Source of the DNA: Gammaproteobacteria bacterium
GTDB lineage: Bacteria > Pseudomonadota > Gammaproteobacteria > DSM-19610
Direction of reading: 5' to 3'
Length of the DNA stretch: 64,000 bases
NCBI GenBank assembly: GCA_011321775.1
Contig: DROT01000127.1
Span: forward strand, 1,144-65,143
Part shown: piece after piece, positions 25,997 through 35,060 of the stretch
Numbering within the stretch: the first letter of the stretch is position 1
How the letters are laid out: every line of letters begins with the position of its first letter
Program-made: the position numbers and the translations under genes
The notes under the pieces: model-generated
The model's database searches: none
What the model was told of the DNA's origin: nothing
Seen by the model: the letters and a program-made list of their open reading frames with translations, nothing else

Positions 25997-26308
25997 TCAG
26001 CGGAGCGGGCGCCAGCCGCCGTCGAAGGCGGCCAAATCGTCAGCGGCGAGGCGTCCCTTGACGTACAGCCGGTCCAGGGTTTGGCGGTCGAGAGCCTGAG
26101 CCTTGCCCGACGCGTCCAGATACTCCCACTGCCCGTGGATGACCAGCAGGAACATGGTTTCCATGATGTCGTCGAGCCGGATACGGTATTCCGACGCGAG
26201 CCGGCCGAAATCCTCCAGCGTCAGCGGGGTCGTCTTGCGACGCTGTTCATCGAGCGCGAGGGACGCAAGGGCGACGTCCCATTTCGGGTGATCTTCGCTT
26301 GTGGGCAT
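25997..26308 (-). CDS. Hypothetical protein (~103 aa)
   Basis: ORF 28 nt upstream of the Na/Pi gene on the same strand, GGAG ribosome-binding site. Confidence 0.7.
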   Translation of the reverse strand: MPTSEDHPKWDVALASLALDEQRRKTTPLTLEDFGRLASEYRIRLDDIMETMFLLVIHGQWEYLDASGKAQALDRQTLDRLYVKGRLAADDLAAFDGGWRPLR

Positions 26309-26714
26309 GTACGGGCTCCTCACTGGCTGCGGTGTTCATTGTACCGGGAATCCGCTTTTTGCTCGCGATTTGCGACACTTGCGCTGCCATTGGCGTGCTT
26401 CGCCGGATGATGAGAGGGTGACGTGCAGGCCGCCAACCGCCTCATTTGGTTATTTGACCTACTTCATGCTGATTCTATTTTTCCGATGCTCGGAAGCGCG
26501 GCTCAGGTTGTTGCCCATGGACGTCTGTTTACCCGTTTTCGTCTCGTCTGTCGTCGATTGGAGACGCTGCGATGTATTGCAAAACAAGTGCTTGGACTTC
26601 CTCTGGAGGCGTCTGTCTTCGGTTGGGGACGCTTTTGGTGTCGCACCTGCGGCGACGGCCTCTGCAGATGAGCGGATGCTGAAAAACCATTTATAAAATA
26701 GTGCGTTGCGTGGT

Positions 26715-27653: not shown

Positions 27654-27669
27654 TGCATAACTTGTGCCA
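27654..27669 (-). promoter_or_regulatory. Sigma54 (-24/-12) promoter
   Basis: Minus strand TGGCACAAGTTATGCA, GG-N10-GC. Confidence 0.7.
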
Positions 27670-27687
27670 ACTATGGGTTGCCACGCC

Positions 27688-28194
27688 ATGATCGAGGTCG
27701 TCGAGGGCGATATTACGCGGCTGGATGTCGATGCCATCGTCAATGCAGCCAACAGCAGCCTGCTGGGCGGTGGCGGCGTCGATGGCGCGATTCATCGTGC
27801 CGCCGGCCCCGAACTGCTGGAATATTGTCGCGGCCTTGGCGGTTGCCCGGTCGGAGAGGCGCGTATCACGCCCGGCTTCCGCTTGCCGGCGAAGTGGATC
27901 ATCCACACCGTTGGTCCCGTATGGCACGGCGGCAATCGCGGTGAGGCGGAACTGCTGGAGCGGTGCTACCGTAACAGCCTGGAGCTGGCGCTGGAGCACG
28001 CCATTCGCAGTATCGCCTTTCCATCCATCAGTACCGGTGCCTACGGCTATCCACCCGATCAGGCGGCAGGCATCGCGGTTACCGTGATGCGGGAATTCGA
28101 GCCCCGTTTCGAGCGCATTATCGCCTGCTGTTTTTCCGCCCGGGACGCCGATCGTTATCGGGCGCTGCTGGAAGTTCCGTCTTCGTCACGGTGA
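27688..28194 (+). CDS. Macrodomain O-acetyl-ADP-ribose deacetylase (YmdB-like)
   Basis: [53 protein letters not shown]. Confidence 0.95.
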
Positions 28195-28357: not shown

Positions 28358-28939
28358 CTACAGTTGCTGAAAATAGGCGGTTTCTTCCGCACTGAGTGGT
28401 GGCAAGGCACTTTCTCCCGACTCTTCGGGCGCGAGCTCGGCGGCCGGGGGCGCCTCGTCGACGGCGGTGGGCAGGCTGGTATCGGTGATCTGTTCCCGTC
28501 CCGGGTTCATCCGTTCCAGCCACAGGCCGGTTTCGCCATTGACCTGCAGTGCCCGGTAACGGAACAGCTTCAGCGAGGGGCAGGAGGCCAGCACTTCCCT
28601 GGCCCCCGGGGGGAAGTCCTCGCTGACCACGACCAGTCGCGGAGGCCGCTGTTTCTGCTGCAGCGCATCGTGAACCTGGTTGATCCAGGGGAGGGCGGCC
28701 GACAACTGCTCCAGCAATTGCAGGCCGTTGAGCAGCGCCATTCTCGCCTGTTCCGCATCGAAGCTGACGACGACCGGTTGCTGGTCCGCGTCGGCCAACA
28801 GCATGGCCTGGGCTTCCCACGGCAGGCGCGGTTCCAGCACGACACTGCCCTTACCACCCAGGTTCTCCGCGGCGTCCAGCAACAGCGAGCGCAATCGTTC
28901 CGGGTCGCGTAGCTGCGTGTTTTCGATGTGCAACGTCAC
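28358..28939 (-). CDS. Hypothetical protein (193 aa)
   Basis: GTG overlaps the upstream stop (GTGA). Alternating beta/alpha pattern, PRLVVVS and FRYRALQVNGETGLWLE, acidic Pro-rich tail. Confidence 0.75.
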   Translation of the reverse strand: MTLHIENTQLRDPERLRSLLLDAAENLGGKGSVVLEPRLPWEAQAMLLADADQQPVVVSFDAEQARMALLNGLQLLEQLSAALPWINQVHDALQQKQRPPRLVVVSEDFPPGAREVLASCPSLKLFRYRALQVNGETGLWLERMNPGREQITDTSLPTAVDEAPPAAELAPEESGESALPPLSAEETAYFQQL

Positions 28940-29631
28940 GGCTTTTCCCGGTCCTCTTCTCCCGCCTGCAGCGGCGTACAGAATTCGCTGCCCACCAGGC
29001 GCTCGCTGATGCGGGTCATGAAGTTGTGGCGGTAGGAATCATCGGTGCTGTGATCAGAGTCGGCCTGCTGCGGCAGGAAACCGAGGTTCAGCAGCGGCAC
29101 ATCGAGATAACGCAGGGTACCGACCGCCAGCTTGCGGAAATAGCGCCAGGCCGCGTGCTGGTCACGTGGGCCGATCATGACGATGCCGATATCCGGCGGC
29201 CTGGTACATGACAGCAGCTTGATGCGCCGGTAGGCGAGCAGCACGGCGTCGAGTTCCGCAGGGACCAGCAGGACCACGTGATCCAGCGGCCATCGTTGCA
29301 GCGCATGCGGGGAAAGGAAAGGAAGCAGACAGAACTCCGTTTTTCCGTGCTCCAGTCCTGCCTGCGCCGCCAGTTCTTCTGCAGAGCAGGCGTGAGGATG
29401 CTGTTCCGGCGGATACAGGCTCGCGCTATGGCCTCGCTGGTTCAGTACCTCGGCCAGTTGCCGGACGATCCGGTTCTGACCGGCATTGTCAAGAAGAAAA
29501 GGAATCGCCCGGCAGGGCGCCTGGTCGCGGGTGTTTTCCGGCGTCCCGTCCGGAATTTGCCCGTGTGCCCGTGCCGGGCGACCGGAGGAAGCCGGTCGGC
29601 GTTGCCATGCGGGACTGAGCTGGCTCACCAT
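28936..29631 (-). CDS. MinD/FlhG-like protein with degenerate P-loop (231 aa)
   Basis: VVLLVPAELDAVLLAYRRIKLL...YFRKLAVGTLRYLDVPLLNLGFLP parallels the FlhG/FleN C-terminal half. ATG overlaps the CBM48 stop. Confidence 0.6.
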   Translation of the reverse strand: MVSQLSPAWQRRPASSGRPARAHGQIPDGTPENTRDQAPCRAIPFLLDNAGQNRIVRQLAEVLNQRGHSASLYPPEQHPHACSAEELAAQAGLEHGKTEFCLLPFLSPHALQRWPLDHVVLLVPAELDAVLLAYRRIKLLSCTRPPDIGIVMIGPRDQHAAWRYFRKLAVGTLRYLDVPLLNLGFLPQQADSDHSTDDSYRHNFMTRISERLVGSEFCTPLQAGEEDREKP

Positions 29632-29924
29632 CAGTGGTGTACCGGAACCTGGAGCAGCGAGTTGATGCCGCCAAACTCGTTGGGGATCTCCGCCGGATTG
29701 GTGGGATCCTGTTGCCATTTTCCATCGATGATCAGGCGGTATTCGTACACCCCCGGCTCGGCGGTGAACACCTTCTGGACGTGTCCGTTTACAATGCGTG
29801 TCTCCACGTTGTGATCGGGCACCCAGTCGTTGAAATCGCCGGCGAGTTGCAGTCGCCGGCAGTCGATGCAGTCATAGGTGAGTACTACCATCTGTCGCTG
29901 GACCTTGGCGCGGGCCTGGCTCAT
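29631..29924 (-). CDS. Stand-alone CBM48 / AMPK-beta-type glycogen-binding domain protein
   Basis: LAGDFNDW, PGVYEYRLIIDGKWQQDP.NP....NEFGGINS. Confidence 0.9.
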   Translation of the reverse strand: MSQARAKVQRQMVVLTYDCIDCRRLQLAGDFNDWVPDHNVETRIVNGHVQKVFTAEPGVYEYRLIIDGKWQQDPTNPAEIPNEFGGINSLLQVPVHH

Positions 29925-29989
29925 AGCCTTTCTCCTCGTGTGCGGTTCAGGGATCGTTCCACCCCGATGCCGTAGTTGCCTTTGTCGGC

Positions 29990-30445
29990 TCAGGCGTATT
30001 TCTCCTCGTTGTCATCCGCAGCGGAAAACAGCTCCCCCTGCTCGGGGAGTTTGCGCTGCAGTTTCTCCACTTCGGCCACCAGTTCGGCGACCGGGAAGAC
30101 CCATTCCTGGCCGGTAAGCGCATCGAAAGCGCGCTCACCGTGGAAAACCAGTACCACATCGCCGGTAACCACCAGTGACAGTTCCGCCAGAGGCTGATCC
30201 ACGGTCGGCAGGAAGCCGGTCAGCGAACGCAGACAGCTGCGCACGCGCTGCAGCGACACGCCGGCGTCGAGCAGGCGTCGCGCCGTACGCAGGGCAATGA
30301 GATCGGTAAAGGAGTAGCGGGCATGGCCGCCGGCTGTACGACTGCTGGGAACAACGAGGCCGGTCTTGCGCCAGTATCCCAGCTGACGTGCGCTGAGACC
30401 GGTGATGGCGGCAACCTGTTGTCGGCTGAAGGAGCCTTGTGTCAC
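29990..30445 (-). CDS. MerR-family HTH regulator (Rv1830-like C-terminus)
   Basis: VAAITGLSARQLGYWRKTGLVVPS...YSFTDLIALRTARRLLDAGVSLQRVR. Confidence 0.9.
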   Translation of the reverse strand: MTQGSFSRQQVAAITGLSARQLGYWRKTGLVVPSSRTAGGHARYSFTDLIALRTARRLLDAGVSLQRVRSCLRSLTGFLPTVDQPLAELSLVVTGDVVLVFHGERAFDALTGQEWVFPVAELVAEVEKLQRKLPEQGELFSAADDNEEKYA

Positions 30446-30554
30446 GGCCAGCCCCCCGATGGGCGATTCGTGATGGCCACAAGTCTCGCAGGCTTTTTGC
30501 GAATGTCAAGGGAAAAAGTACAAAAGTCCCGTTTTTTGTCTCTTTCCGGTCGGG

Positions 30555-31031
30555 CTACCAGCTGATGTAGCTGTAACCCTGCTCCTGCAGCCGCATCAGA
30601 TCGTCGGCGCCGACGTCAACCACCTGCGCGAAATCCAGCATGTCGGCCGCGTTCCAGTTGAGTGCTTTCATGGTGTTGCCGCAGGCGTGGAAGGAGACTC
30701 CATAGGCGGCCAGGCTGGCCACGCGCTGACGGATGAGTTCGGGGATGGGGCGCAGCGGGCGACGCGCAAGGATGTGGATGCCGGGGCCGATCGCGGTCAC
30801 CACCAGGTGAATGTTGTCACCATGCTTGCGCAGCATGGCGCCAACGGAGAACAGGACGTGCTCCATGTATACGGGATCGTCCTTGTTGAACTGGTAGACC
30901 AGCTTGTGCTCGGCCTCGCCCAGCAGATCCCGGTCGGGGCCCTCGGTTGCGCCGCTACGGGAGGCGAGTGACAGGCCGCTGGCGGCGGACAGCCAGCAGA
31001 GGAGTCGACGGCGGTTCAGACGTGTTTTCAT
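30555..31031 (-). CDS. Tat-exported DsrE/DsrF-like protein
   Basis: NRRRLL twin-arginine signal, VTAIGPGI, FHACGNTM, LQEQGYSYI. Forms the 3' end of the long 30555-33470 track ORF. Confidence 0.85.
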   Translation of the reverse strand: MKTRLNRRRLLCWLSAASGLSLASRSGATEGPDRDLLGEAEHKLVYQFNKDDPVYMEHVLFSVGAMLRKHGDNIHLVVTAIGPGIHILARRPLRPIPELIRQRVASLAAYGVSFHACGNTMKALNWNAADMLDFAQVVDVGADDLMRLQEQGYSYISW

Positions 31032-31151: not shown

Positions 31152-34100
31152 TTGGCGGCCTGCGACCATAGCAATCATGAGGTTCCTCGCAACGAGGAGC
31201 GCTTGCAGGACCTGGTCCGTAGTCTGGACGACTGCAGGGCCCGGGATATTCCCGCGTTGCGCAAGCGGCAGCAGGAAGTGCGGAGGCGCATGCGCCGCGG
31301 TCGACCGGTGAGCCGGGATCTGGCCGCCCTGGAGGGCGCGGTGGAGGCTTCCCTGGCGCGGGTCGAGGCCCGTCGCAGCTCGCTGCCGGAGCTGCGTTAT
31401 CCTGCCGCGTTGCCGGTGGTCGCAAAACGCGCCGTCATCCTCGAGGCCCTGGCCCGCAGCCAGGTCGTGGTGCTCTGTGGCGCCACCGGTTCCGGCAAGA
31501 CCACCCAGCTGCCCAAGATCTGTCTGGAAGCCGGACGCGGCGTGCGCGGCCGGATCGGTCACACCCAGCCGCGTCGTCTGGCCGCGCGCACGCTGGCAGC
31601 ACGCATTGCCGAGGAGCTGGATTGCCCGCTCGGCGCTCAGGTGGGCTACAAGGTGCGTTTCCACGACCGGGTCGGTGACGGTAGCCATATCAAGGTCATG
31701 ACCGACGGTATCCTGCTGGCCGAGATCCAGTCCGATCCCGAACTGCGAGAATACGACACCCTCATCATCGACGAGGCTCACGAGCGCAGCCTCAATATCG
31801 ATTTTCTGCTCGGCTACCTGCGACGCCTGTTGCCGCGACGCCCCGACCTGAAGCTGGTCATCACCTCCGCGACCATCGACCCGGAGCGTTTTTCGCGCCA
31901 CTTCGACGACGCGCCGATCATCGAGGTATCGGGACGCACCTGGCCGGTGGAAGTGCGTTACCGGCCATTGCGGGGCACCGACGAAGAGGCACGCGAGCGT
32001 GACCGCAGCCAGGCAATCCTTGATGCCATCGACGAACTGGCCTGTGAGGGACCCGGTGACGTGCTCGTTTTCCTGCCGGGTGAGCGGGCGATACGCGAGA
32101 CTGCCGAACAGCTGCGCAAGCACCATCCCGCGGGAACCGAGATCCTGCCGCTGTATGCACGGCTGTCGGCGGCGCAGCAGAGCCGCGTGTTCCGTGAGCA
32201 CCGCGGTCGCCGCATCGTGCTGGCCACCAACGTGGCGGAGACCTCGCTCACCGTCCCCGGAATCCGCTACGTGGTCGATACCGGTCTGGCACGCATCAGC
32301 CGTTACAGCTACCGCAGCAAGGTACAGCGTCTGCCTGTCGAGCCGGTTTCGCGCGCCTCCGCGGACCAGCGCGCCGGCCGCTGTGGTCGGGTGGCGGCGG
32401 GCATCTGTATCCGGCTGTACTCGGAAGAGGAGTATCTGGCACGGCCGGCGTTCACAGAGGCCGAGATTCGGCGGACCAGCTTGGCTGCGGTCATCCTGCA
32501 GATGGCGCTGCTGGGGCTCGGCGAGATCGAGGATTTTCCCTTTGTCGATGCGCCGGACAGTCGCTTCGTACGTGACGGCTACAAGCTGCTGCAGGAGCTG
32601 GATGCGGTCGACGGGCGGCACAAGCTGACGGCGCTCGGCCGACAGCTGGCGCGGCTGCCGGTCGACCCCCGTCTGGGGCGCATGATCCTGAGCGCCTCGG
32701 AAAGGCATTGTCTCACCGAGGTGATGGTCATCGTCGCGGCGCTGGAGACGGCGGATCCGCGCGAACGACCGCTGGACAAGGCGGCGGCTGCGGACGCCAG
32801 GCATGCCCTGTTCAGTGATCCGCGATCCGACTTCATGACCTTTCTCAAGCTGTGGAGGCTGTTCCACGAGCAGGCTCGGCAGTTGTCCCAGAACCGGTTG
32901 CGCAAATGGTGTCGCGAGCATTTTCTCTCCTGGATACGCATGCGCGAATGGATCGATGTTCACCGCCAGCTGCGCGAGCGGGTGGCGAGCATGGGCATGG
33001 AGTGCAACAGTGGTGAAGCCGACTACCGTTCGATCCACTGTGCGCTGCTGAGCGGACTCCCGGGCAACGTGGCACAGCGGATCGAGGGTTGCGAATACAG
33101 AGGTGCGCGCAACCTGAAGTTCAGGCTGTTTCCGGGTTCGGTGCTGGCAGGAAAGCCGCCGCGCTGGCTGGTGGCGGCCGAACTGGTGGAGACCGGCCGG
33201 CGTTACCTGCGCACCGCTGCCGCCATCGAGCCGCAGTGGGTGGAGGCGGTCGCGCCACATCTCCTGAAACGCAGCCATGCCGATCCGCACTGGGAGAAGA
33301 AGCGTGCCTGCGTGATCGCCACCGAACGCGTCACCCTCTATGGCCTGCCCGTGGTCAGCGGCCGCAAGGTCGACTACAGCCGTATCGACCCGCGCCTGTC
33401 GCGGGAACTGTTTATCCGTCACGCCCTGGTGCGCGGCGAGTGGCGCGGCCCGGCAGCCTTCCTGGAGCACAACCGGCGCCTGCTGGAGGAGCTGGACCTG
33501 CTGGAGTCCAAGAGTCGACGTCGCGACCTGCTGGTGGACGAGGAGGTACTGTATCGCTTTTTCGACGAGCGCATTCCGGAAGAGGTATGCGATGCGCGCC
33601 GTTTCCGGCGCTGGTGGAAGAAGACCGCGGAGCAGCAGTCGGAGCTGTTGAAGCTTTCACGCGCCTTGCTCATGCAGCACGACGCGAAACAGCTGATCAC
33701 CGAGCGCTTCCCTGATTTCATGGATGTCCGGGGGATGCGCCTGGCGCTGGCCTACCGCTTCGCGCCGGGTGATCCGGAAGACGGTCTGCACGTCAGGCTG
33801 CCGCTGGCCGCGCTGAACCAGGTGCGGGCGGAGGACTTCGAATGGCTGGTGCCGGGGTTGTTGCGGGAGAAGTTCATCCATCTCATCAAGTCCCTGCCCA
33901 AGCCGTTGCGGCGGCACTTCGTGCCGGCTCCCGACTATGCAGACGCCTGCCTGCAGGCGCTGGAAGAACGCAAGGGCCCGCTGACGGAAACCCTTGCCGG
34001 CATGTTGCAGCACATGACCGGGATTTCCGTGCCGGGAGACGCCTGGCGTCGTGAACGCCTGCCGGCACACCTGGAGCCCTTCTTCGAACTGATCGACAGT

Positions 34101-35060
34101 GACGGCCGGCGACTGGGGGCCGGACGCGAGCTGCGCCGCCTGCAGGCGGATTTCGGCCACCGTGCGCGCGACGGTTTTGTTCGCAGCGTGGCGGCCGGCT
34201 TCGAACGTGAGGGCATTCGGGAATGGGACTTTGGTACCTTGCCGGAGCGCGTGGAAGTGGAGAGCGACGGGGTCGCCCTGGGTGCCTATCCGGCACTCGT
34301 AGGCACGGGTGATGAAGTCGCCTTGCGGATGTTCGACGATCCCGGCCAGGCGAGGGAGGCACATCGTGCCGGCGTGCTGGCACTGTTCCGCCGCCGCTGT
34401 GGCCGCCTGTTGCGCGATGTTCCGCGCACGGTGCCGGAGTTCGACCGGCAGTTGCTGTGGTTCAGCCCGGTGGCGGACGCGGAGGCATTGCGTTCCGACC
34501 TGGAACAGGCCGCCTTGCAGGCAGCCTTTCCGGGCGACGCCGGGGAAGTGCGCGATGCGCAGACCTTCGAGCGCAGGCTGGAGGAGGGGCGTCGCTGCCT
34601 CATGGAGCGGGCGCTGCATATCGGGCGTTGCAGTTTCGAGGCCCTGCAGGCCTTCCACGAACTCGGTCGGTGCCTGCGGGGAGCTGTCACGCCGCAGATG
34701 CTGGCGGCGACGGCGGAAGTGCGTGCCCAGGCGGAAGCGCTGATCTATCCCGGTTTTCTCGCTGCCACGCCACCGCAGTGGCTGCCGCACCTGGGTCGTT
34801 ACCTGCGCGCCGCCGCCAGGCGGCTGGACAAGCTCCCGGGCAGACTGCAACGCGAGCGCGAGTCAGCGGCCACGGTAAGGCGTTACCGCTCGCTCTATGA
34901 AGAGGCGCTGGCGCGCGGCGGATCGTCACCGGAGCTGGACGAGTACCGCTGGCTGATCGAGGAGTTGCGGGTGTCGCTGTTCGCCCAGGAACTGGGGACG
35001 GCGGTCAAGGTGTCGCCACAGCGTCTGGACCGTCTGTGGCAGAAACTGCGGGCGGCCTGA
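31152..35060 (+). CDS. hrpA: ATP-dependent RNA helicase HrpA (start uncertain)
   Basis: GATGSGKTTQLP, IIDEAHERS, TSAT, ATNVAETSLT, QRAGRCGR, IEELRVSLFAQELGT. Confidence 0.96.
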   Translation: MAACDHSNHEVPRNEERLQDLVRSLDDCRARDIPALRKRQQEVRRRMRRGRPVSRDLAALEGAVEASLARVEARRSSLPELRYPAALPVVAKRAVILEALARSQVVVLCGATGSGKTTQLPKICLEAGRGVRGRIGHTQPRRLAARTLAARIAEELDCPLGAQVGYKVRFHDRVGDGSHIKVMTDGILLAEIQSDPELREYDTLIIDEAHERSLNIDFLLGYLRRLLPRRPDLKLVITSATIDPERFSRHFDDAPIIEVSGRTWPVEVRYRPLRGTDEEARERDRSQAILDAIDELACEGPGDVLVFLPGERAIRETAEQLRKHHPAGTEILPLYARLSAAQQSRVFREHRGRRIVLATNVAETSLTVPGIRYVVDTGLARISRYSYRSKVQRLPVEPVSRASADQRAGRCGRVAAGICIRLYSEEEYLARPAFTEAEIRRTSLAAVILQMALLGLGEIEDFPFVDAPDSRFVRDGYKLLQELDAVDGRHKLTALGRQLARLPVDPRLGRMILSASERHCLTEVMVIVAALETADPRERPLDKAAAADARHALFSDPRSDFMTFLKLWRLFHEQARQLSQNRLRKWCREHFLSWIRMREWIDVHRQLRERVASMGMECNSGEADYRSIHCALLSGLPGNVAQRIEGCEYRGARNLKFRLFPGSVLAGKPPRWLVAAELVETGRRYLRTAAAIEPQWVEAVAPHLLKRSHADPHWEKKRACVIATERVTLYGLPVVSGRKVDYSRIDPRLSRELFIRHALVRGEWRGPAAFLEHNRRLLEELDLLESKSRRRDLLVDEEVLYRFFDERIPEEVCDARRFRRWWKKTAEQQSELLKLSRALLMQHDAKQLITERFPDFMDVRGMRLALAYRFAPGDPEDGLHVRLPLAALNQVRAEDFEWLVPGLLREKFIHLIKSLPKPLRRHFVPAPDYADACLQALEERKGPLTETLAGMLQHMTGISVPGDAWRRERLPAHLEPFFELIDSDGRRLGAGRELRRLQADFGHRARDGFVRSVAAGFEREGIREWDFGTLPERVEVESDGVALGAYPALVGTGDEVALRMFDDPGQAREAHRAGVLALFRRRCGRLLRDVPRTVPEFDRQLLWFSPVADAEALRSDLEQAALQAAFPGDAGEVRDAQTFERRLEEGRRCLMERALHIGRCSFEALQAFHELGRCLRGAVTPQMLAATAEVRAQAEALIYPGFLAATPPQWLPHLGRYLRAAARRLDKLPGRLQRERESAATVRRYRSLYEEALARGGSSPELDEYRWLIEELRVSLFAQELGTAVKVSPQRLDRLWQKLRAA

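Follow-up and report, generated by a model that had tools for sequence, protein, structure and literature searches.

An operon of four genes, merR, CBM48, X and Y, was analysed in a 64,000-nucleotide stretch of a gammaproteobacterial genome (contig DROT01000127.1 of assembly GCA_011321775.1; the window, hereafter, is this whole stretch). We are highly confident about the identity of this operon and about its evolutionary state: it is a ParA-less derivative of a four-gene module whose complete form, present in relatives, encodes a ParA ATPase fused to the CBM48 domain. The products that remain may form a glycogen-linked scaffold, a mechanism that we put forward tentatively and would not yet call probable. 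The ParA-less module and this explanation of it, when taken as one, come out slightly on the probable side, in a judgement that blends our confidence in both.

The operon derives from a module with a ParA::CBM48 fusion

In relatives of the window genome, a gene of ~370 codons lies between merR and X and encodes an intact ParA with a C-terminal CBM48. Its ParA part bears the deviant Walker A motif KGGCGKTT, matches AAA_31 at 1.2e-49 and shares ~37% identity with the other ParAs of the genome, and the CBM48 of the window is orthologous to the C-terminal domain of these ParA::CBM48 proteins of 366-408 residues. Among the 34 Thiogranum genomes of the sample, 19 have the fusion and 13 have the CBM48 alone, in the same dsrE...hrpA neighbourhood. 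The window genome holds no orthologue of the fused ParA domain, its best match (37% identity) being a paralogue that is found in every congener. Thiogranum longum, the sole cultured species, is included in the sample (protein P0078 is identical to X of locus L030, genome G019) and has the ParA-less form. An earlier note, made from the letters of the window, had described the CBM48 as standing alone and had suggested a search for ParA-CBM48 fusions elsewhere. Such fusions were found in the relatives, and the stand-alone CBM48, although true of the window, is secondary, left over from a deleted ParA fusion.

The order merR, CBM48, X and Y is common to 32 of the 34 Thiogranum genomes and to at least seven other gammaproteobacterial genera, an arrangement that chance would hardly produce; the four genes are strictly co-conserved, and a lack of such co-conservation was one of the findings by which the earlier note would have seen its reading refuted. 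The fusion is also present in outgroup loci (L019, L021, L023, L070-L072, L077, L078, L081-L083), with X and Y adjacent to it and with MerR upstream wherever the locus extends that far. The Y family occurs in 8 of the 320 sampled genera of the class. In the outgroups with readable context, Y stands beside X and X beside ParA::CBM48, the flanking genes being otherwise unrelated between lineages. From this outgroup order we conclude that the ancestral unit consisted of MerR, ParA::CBM48, X and Y.

ParA-CBM (ConB5) systems were described computationally on 22 October 2026, together with the proposal of a carbohydrate-triggered ParA multimerisation in immunity; one variant comprises a second inactive ParA and an inactive restriction endonuclease (REase), and a MerR gene is not mentioned in the description (bioRxiv 10.64898/2026.10.19.760177). 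The locus of the relatives (ParA-AMPK1_CBM, dead ParA-like protein, dead REase-fold protein) matches this variant in components and order. The fusion that defines ConB5 is absent from the window and present in 19/34 congeners and in all readable outgroups. X corresponds to the second inactive ParA, by predicted fold only, and Y may correspond to the inactive REase, its top matches being NucS/EndoMS at a weak expectation value (E) of 3e-3, with the catalytic (D/E)xK absent. In contrast to the published description, all gammaproteobacterial loci that extend far enough upstream include a MerR-family gene, the CBM evolves slowly and not rapidly, with a housekeeping-like inheritance, and ParA, the proposed effector, can be dispensed with in nature. 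We hold it very probable that the window operon is a motor-less variant of the computationally described module and not a new stand-alone system. In this sense, the idea of an undescribed system, which the earlier note had favoured, gives way, since the preprint already describes the intact form as a set of ParA-CBM, inactive ParA and inactive REase. Its suggestion of a positioning module also loses ground, as the genome is without the ParA motor that such a module would need.

Repeated deletion of the ATPase and an internal start codon

In a maximum-likelihood tree built from MerR, CBM48, DsrE and the core of X, the fused or stand-alone state changes 9 times, and at least 6 of these changes are forced by well-supported branches. 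The ATPase domain was deleted independently at least 6 times, in the lineage of the window and in at least 5 others of the genus, with ~9 as the best estimate. The end points of the deletions differ between lineages; some left the first codons of parA in place, e.g. in L031 (MNAIAIARQ...) and in L030 of T. longum, where two remnants are kept. In the window, the spacer between merR and CBM48 consists of what is left, in degraded form, of the 5' part of the merR-parA leader and, after it, the Shine-Dalgarno (SD) sequence of the former linker, GAGGAG, located 7 nucleotides before the ATG, and at the same position fusion relatives have a leader of ~106 nucleotides and ~265 codons of parA and linker. 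Every deletion kept the same methionine. An SD of the GAGGA type exactly 7 nucleotides before the ATG was found in 19/19 fusion genes and 14/14 stand-alone genes of the genus, so that each of the 19 genus fusions carries this SD and ATG internally and in frame; the pair is absent from outgroup fusions. A possible explanation for the clean removal of the motor may be that the internal SD and ATG already lie in the fusion genes. These genes would also yield free CBM48 by internal initiation, as suggested by the position of the two elements, and the CBM48 of the window would be translated from the SD and ATG formerly inside the fusion gene.

The deletion of ParA is accompanied by changes in X. 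Its N-terminal motif, RLAKISARFLSD in the genus and ISHHFLSE in outgroups, scores 9-12 out of 12 in 19/19 fusion loci and below 9 in 7 of 13 ParA-less loci (Mann-Whitney p = 7.5e-4), and the window copy scores 3/12 (RPARAHGQIPDG). By relative rates, the divergence of X is higher in ParA-less lineages (window 0.49-0.50, versus 0.38-0.41) and so, less clearly, is that of Y; no faster divergence was found in these lineages for MerR, CBM48 or the flanking dsrE. In ParA-less clades, X has a ratio of nonsynonymous to synonymous substitution rates (dN/dS) of 0.28-0.35 and Y one of 0.19-0.27; for MerR and CBM48 the ratio is 0.17 or lower everywhere. Being well below 1, the values of X and Y denote that in these clades both genes are still under purifying selection. 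The module is reduced in an ordered way: the motor goes first, then the X peptide that is presumed to address the motor and sometimes X and Y, and MerR and CBM48 are never lost.

It could be argued that the window operon is a decaying remnant, where MerR and CBM48 alone are functional and X and Y are intact-looking relics heading to pseudogenes. The destroyed N-terminal motif of the window X is in line with this idea, as is the terminal divergence of X, the longest in the genus, a behavior that MerR and CBM48 do not share. Moreover, other ParA-less genomes are without Y (L031, L033) or have a truncated X and no Y (L036). However, the open reading frames (ORFs) of X and Y in the window are full length and keep their translational coupling and most conserved blocks, among them 'GPRDQHAAWRYFRKLAVGTLRYLDVPLLNLGFLP' in X and 'AYFQQL' in Y; where ParA-less clades are old enough for an estimate, the dN/dS of the two genes is 0.19-0.35, and both are intact in 10 of the 13 ParA-less loci where X can be scored. 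We therefore find a mere remnant quite improbable.

Other variants of the locus were also observed. The metagenome-assembled genome G014 has two versions of it, a fusion on C200 (L002) and a ParA-less copy on C44 (L036), the latter in the dsrE...hrpA context; either two strains were binned together in G014 or the locus is duplicated. In L031, L033, L035 and L036 an opposite-strand gene of 222-254 residues, whose product ends in ...VDWFEQVGA..QQLC.VL..R.DEL..ELAA, abuts the module downstream of X; it sits in the place of the absent Y in L031, L033 and L036 and just beyond Y in L035. L022 (JGI metagenome contig; ParA::CBM48 P0235) is a more distant locus with no MerR, in which a neighbour of 243 residues keeps only the N-terminal motif '..LHHFIPE', the third gene has no relation to Y and a phosphoglucomutase gene is adjacent. 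It may be another variant of the ParA-CBM system. In the fusion-bearing loci L037-L054, the merR-parA spacer of ~106 nucleotides is conserved at the nucleotide level and non-coding (stops in all frames, varying frame). Two hairpins lie in it (GATGAAGCGGC...GCCCTTCATC; TGCAG...CTGCA), which show some compensatory changes, and the SD GGAGAC comes after them. This leader had no relevant Rfam match in one fusion locus and its covariation by alifold was weak; the spacer may be an attenuator or a processing site that sets the MerR:ParA ratio.

The CBM48 domain and proteins X and Y

The CBM48 of the window matches AMPK1_CBM (PF16561) with 34.2 bits (cut-off 26.8; E 3e-08). It aligns to the AMPK beta1 CBM 1z0n at 6e-7, and to AMPK beta1 and beta2 CBM structures at 6e-7 to 9e-5. 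The AMPK beta1 glucan contacts W100, W133 and N150 are kept and K126 is replaced by R; the glucan-contact positions are invariant among fusion proteins with only 41-75% mutual identity. The domain would then bind alpha-glucan (glycogen) via this conserved Trp/Trp/Asn/Arg site. In an exhaustive representative search with the 97-residue protein as query, matches were mostly multi-CBM repeat proteins. The CxxC motif CIDC, which had been considered unusual in the earlier note, is present in the window and was rejected as a conserved metal or redox site, the second Cys alone being conserved in the genus and neither Cys in outgroups.

Neither X nor Y matched a Pfam or NCBIfam family. An AlphaFold2 model of X obtained with 35 homologues has a predicted local distance difference test (pLDDT) value of 75.7, residues 1-35 and the tail being disordered. 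Foldseek against the PDB relates this model to FlhG (4rz3/4rz2), FleN (5j1j/8pb9), MinD (4v03) and ParF (4e07), with E of 1e-7 to 1e-5 and template modelling (TM) scores of 0.5-0.6. Neither Walker A nor Walker B nor a GK[ST] motif is found in X, and the strand-loop-helix at the position expected for the P-loop reads 'IPFLLDNAGQ' (IPFLLD-NAG-Q). X is thus predicted to be a catalytically dead MinD/ParA-like fold. When 35 members of the X family were compared with Pfam, only faint AAA_26 matches came up.

In the AlphaFold model of Y (pLDDT 80), residues 1-148 form a globular domain, which a disordered linker connects to a short helix at the C-terminus. Its top Foldseek matches are the NucS/EndoMS structures 2vld and 5gke, which are the only near-significant ones (E 3e-3 to 5e-3, TM 0.37-0.44), and other PD-(D/E)XK nucleases appear lower down the list. 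The conserved columns of the family contain no (D/E)xK and no Lys, so the catalytic D...(D/E)xK is absent; D50 alone is nearly invariant, and in the following strand, VVSF, S59 and F60 are conserved. The C-terminal peptide LSxEExAYFQQL does not vary within the genus and can still be recognised in distant members. Y always adjoins X, in 8 genera. With a pI (isoelectric point) of 4.5 and a net charge of -13, a role of Y as DNA sensor or tether is unlikely. The four domain assignments of the earlier note agree with these results, including the two made by eye, a P-loop-dead MinD/FlhG fold for the 231-residue protein and a possible inactivated NucS-like fold for Y, both folds being predictions from the models and Foldseek.

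Evidence on a possible glycogen-linked role

The preprint suggests another function for this gene set, that of an immune ('conflict') system in which the CBM, acting as a lectin, responds to carbohydrates linked to infection or to a depletion of polysaccharide, and ParA forms multimers that contain the invader. The inactive ParA and the inactive REase would be extra sensors, and the window copy would be a disarmed or re-purposed defence locus. The gene set that the preprint describes is the same one (ParA-CBM core, rapidly evolving inactive ParA, inactive REase), and X and Y indeed evolve ~2x faster than MerR and CBM48 (~50% versus 75-80% identity). The sporadic presence of the module (8/320 sampled genera) and the repeated loss of its parts, common for defence genes, would fit as well. 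However, the CBM48 is not fast-evolving (dN/dS 0.01-0.17), and its glycogen contacts are invariant even at 41-50% identity. The module is inherited vertically at one chromosomal site in 32/34 species of the genus, next to housekeeping genes (dsrE and hrpA; elsewhere FBPase, pho regulon genes and phosphoglucomutase) and not in defence islands. In PADLOC, MerR had only a generic helix-turn-helix (HTH) match, to mad1, and CBM48, X and Y had none, with the PADLOC-DB 2.0 library dating from 2023 and thus being older than the ParA-CBM preprint. In addition, the proposed effector ParA is the part that was repeatedly discarded, the rest being under purifying selection, and the strongly acidic Y fits a DNA sensor poorly. 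Taking both sides together, we consider an immune function unlikely.

We found glgA, the gene of glycogen synthase, in 34/34 genomes of the genus and in 8/8 other module-bearing genomes, compared with 149/308 genera of the class sample, an association of roughly p = 0.003 in a calculation that ignores phylogenetic kinship, which counts against giving it full weight. From the conserved sugar-contact residues, the vertical inheritance and the presence of glgA alongside the module, a glycogen-linked scaffold appears more likely than an immune sensor in an arms race.

Several other points weigh against the glycogen-linked scaffold and the picture of ordered reduction behind it. The sole published interpretation (the preprint) proposes immunity and not glycogen handling. 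The ParA/MinD assignment of X comes entirely from predicted structure, and a comparison of the X family with ParA::CBM48 by hhalign gave a probability of 1.5%, which is not significant; the nuclease-fold match of the Y model is weak (E 3e-3). A paired phylogenetic test of motif decay in X was not significant and was underpowered (5 pairs; 2-3 concordant, 0 discordant), and the window lineage is the longest branch in the genus. The loss of Y in two ParA-less species (L031, L033), and of Y together with part of X in contig L036, denotes that a ParA-less remnant can go on decaying.

The MerR regulator and its promoter

The product of merR matches the Pfam families MerR_1 with 57.6 bits (cut-off 21.6; E 1.4e-15) and MerR with 33.5 bits (cut-off 28.2), and its N-terminal winged HTH spans residues ~7-75. 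The best solved relative, for the HTH only, is CvkR/Alr3614 (7xn2), followed by GlnR/TnrA and CarH. MerR identity is 69-86% within the genus and 53-64% to outgroups, and its dN/dS is 0.02-0.14. The C-terminal domain is beta-rich, highly conserved and non-canonical; the block 'PLxELSLVVTGDVVLVFHG..FDALTGQEWVFP' and the tail motif Q(G)ELF are near-invariant.

A putative promoter precedes merR (Table 1), with its -10 hexamer at 30482-30487, and the elements CTTGACAT and CCTGCGAnACT are kept upstream of merR across ~34 loci. A generic consensus promoter scan did not call the merR promoter, the -10 being weak. The -35 is closely preceded by a palindrome, GGACAAAAA-N6-TTTTTGTCC, which is kept in position and sequence upstream of merR in all genus loci and is recognisable also in the outgroup loci L019, L021 and L023, whose upstream genes differ. 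Its pattern has 1 match in the whole 3.08-Mb genome and a control pattern has 0. The layout is not that of a classical MerR activator: the spacer has 16 nucleotides instead of 19-20 and the palindrome is upstream of the -35 instead of inside the spacer, and because the spacer is of ordinary length MerR is not a classical activator. The uniqueness of the palindrome in the genome points to a dedicated autoregulatory MerR-type protein and not to a global regulator; a wider MerR regulon was rejected on the same grounds. The MerR-type protein probably binds the palindrome, in view of the position and conservation of the latter. In this sense, an autoregulated repressor or activator of the MerR type would bind beside its own promoter and drive one transcript.

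These features also bring up a glycogen-responsive switch, where glucan-free CBM48, with X and Y, would bind the C-terminal domain of MerR or its QGELF tail, by analogy with the control of GlnR/TnrA by glutamine synthetase, and the expression of the operon would report the carbon-storage state. MerR and CBM48 are the slowest-evolving and never lost components, the HTH of MerR resembles those of the small partner-controlled regulators GlnR and TnrA, and its non-canonical C-terminal domain and tail motif are almost invariant. Nevertheless, the genome has a single copy of the candidate operator, at the promoter of the operon itself, which leads to self-regulation only and leaves the output unexplained. 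We regard such a switch as improbable, in the same low range as a mere remnant or just below it.

Layout of the locus and neighbouring genes

The four genes lie on the minus strand with the partial overlaps that the earlier note had described, and both of its translational couplings can be read in the sequence: the CBM48 stop and the X start share base 29631 in TGATG, and the X stop overlaps the Y start in GTGA at 28936-28939. The operon is flanked by a DsrE-like gene with 70-80% identity across the genus and by hrpA. The ORF of 971 residues in Table 1 is spurious; its real part, the last ~140 codons, is the DsrE-like gene and the remainder is antisense to hrpA. A macro-domain gene (Pfam Macro 6.6e-50; no PADLOC match) is convergent with the operon and holds the same position in many congeners. 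A gene for a 108-residue protein with no Pfam match (..PKWDVALASLA...LDRLYVKGRLAADDLAAFDGGWRP) is located near the locus and is conserved in congeners, e.g. in L031 and L033.

Table 1. Positions of the operon, its regulatory elements and the neighbouring genes in the window
Feature	Position	Strand	Description
Candidate MerR operator	30520-30539	-	palindrome ACAAAAAACGGGACTTTTGT (ACAAAA-N8-TTTTGT), just upstream of -35
Putative operon promoter	30482-30509	-	-35 TTGACA (30504-30509), 16-nucleotide spacer, extended -10 TGcGAGACT
merR	29990-30445	-	151 residues, GTG start; MerR_1
merR-CBM48 spacer	29925-29989	-	65 nucleotides
CBM48 gene	29631-29924	-	97 residues; AMPK1_CBM
X	28936-29631	-	231 residues; predicted MinD/FlhG/ParA-like fold without P-loop
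Y	28358-28939	-	193 residues; acidic, predicted NucS-like inactive nuclease fold
DsrE-like gene	~30555-30980	-	flanks the operon
ORF of 971 residues	30555-33470	-	spurious
hrpA	31152-35060	+	flanks the operon
Macro-domain gene	27664-28194	+	convergent with the operon
Gene of the 108-residue protein	25997-26323	-	

Discussion

ParA/MinD ATPases are a general bacterial solution for the placement of large objects without a cytoskeleton; McdAB serves carboxysomes and ParC-ParP/PpfA serves chemoreceptor arrays. To our knowledge, no ParA/MinD positioning system is known for a storage polysaccharide, and in the literature we found nothing that links ParA with glycogen granules. In the intact form of the module, the ParA domain would add an ATP-dependent nucleoid binding and the N-terminal RLAKISARFLSD peptide of X would be the partner or activator of ParA, as ParB or MinE peptides are, resulting in a dynamic link of glycogen particles to the nucleoid. 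In the window, X would serve as a MinD-like scaffold free of nucleotide, and the acidic Y as an adaptor that docks through its C-terminal peptide; together with CBM48 they would assemble as a static, ATP-independent complex associated with glycogen. The window would thus keep the cargo-binding and scaffold half and have lost the motor half. A further step, which we hold rather unlikely, would make the CBM48-X-Y trio under MerR the core of a glycogen-particle organiser with ParA as an optional part; the fusion gene would give two products, and free CBM48 would compete for or cap glucan sites, tuning the coupling between glycogen and nucleoid.

This proposal shares several features with known positioning systems (ParABS/Soj-Spo0J, McdAB, ParC-ParP/PpfA, PomXYZ, FlhG/FleN). 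The intact relatives also have a Soj-like ParA and a dedicated neighbour partner, X, with a short conserved N-terminal peptide and a predicted FlhG/FleN/MinD fold. The candidate for the ATPase-stimulating peptide of such systems is the motif of X, kept with ParA and decayed in the window. In contrast to them, it is the ATPase and not the partner that carries the cargo receptor, CBM48, and the partner X would itself be a nucleotide-free ParA-like fold. Also unlike them, the window operon is without an active deviant-Walker-A ATPase, and therefore an ATP-driven gradient or ratchet is not possible there.

Two of the remaining components also resemble other known proteins. Plant PTST proteins are scaffolds that bring partners to starch. 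Like the CBM of the AMPK beta subunit, the CBM48 of the window is a small beta-sandwich with Trp/Trp/Asn at the same positions, and without a catalytic domain it would be a targeting or scaffolding module; it differs from these proteins in being a bacterial single domain of 97 residues with no kinase or coiled-coil partner, and its glucan binding is predicted. In NucS, a C-terminal peptide binds the sliding clamp. Y resembles NucS/EndoMS (2vld, 5gke) in its N-terminal domain and in having a flexible linker that leads to a short docking peptide at the C-terminus, and differs from NucS in the weakness of the match (TM ~0.4), the absence of (D/E)xK, the pI of 4.5 and the absence of the N-terminal DNA-binding domain of NucS.

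Thiogranum constitutes a natural deletion series that goes from the intact module through at least 6 independent, clean deletions of the ATPase to the loss of the X peptide and, later, of Y and X. The series identifies the N-terminal peptide of X as the motor-dependent part, indicates that CBM48, X and Y keep a motor-independent function under selection, and argues against ParA as the sole effector. Furthermore, the in-frame internal start in every fusion of the genus is a possible case of one gene with two products. As T. longum is cultured and has the ParA-less form, both states of the module are comparable experimentally.

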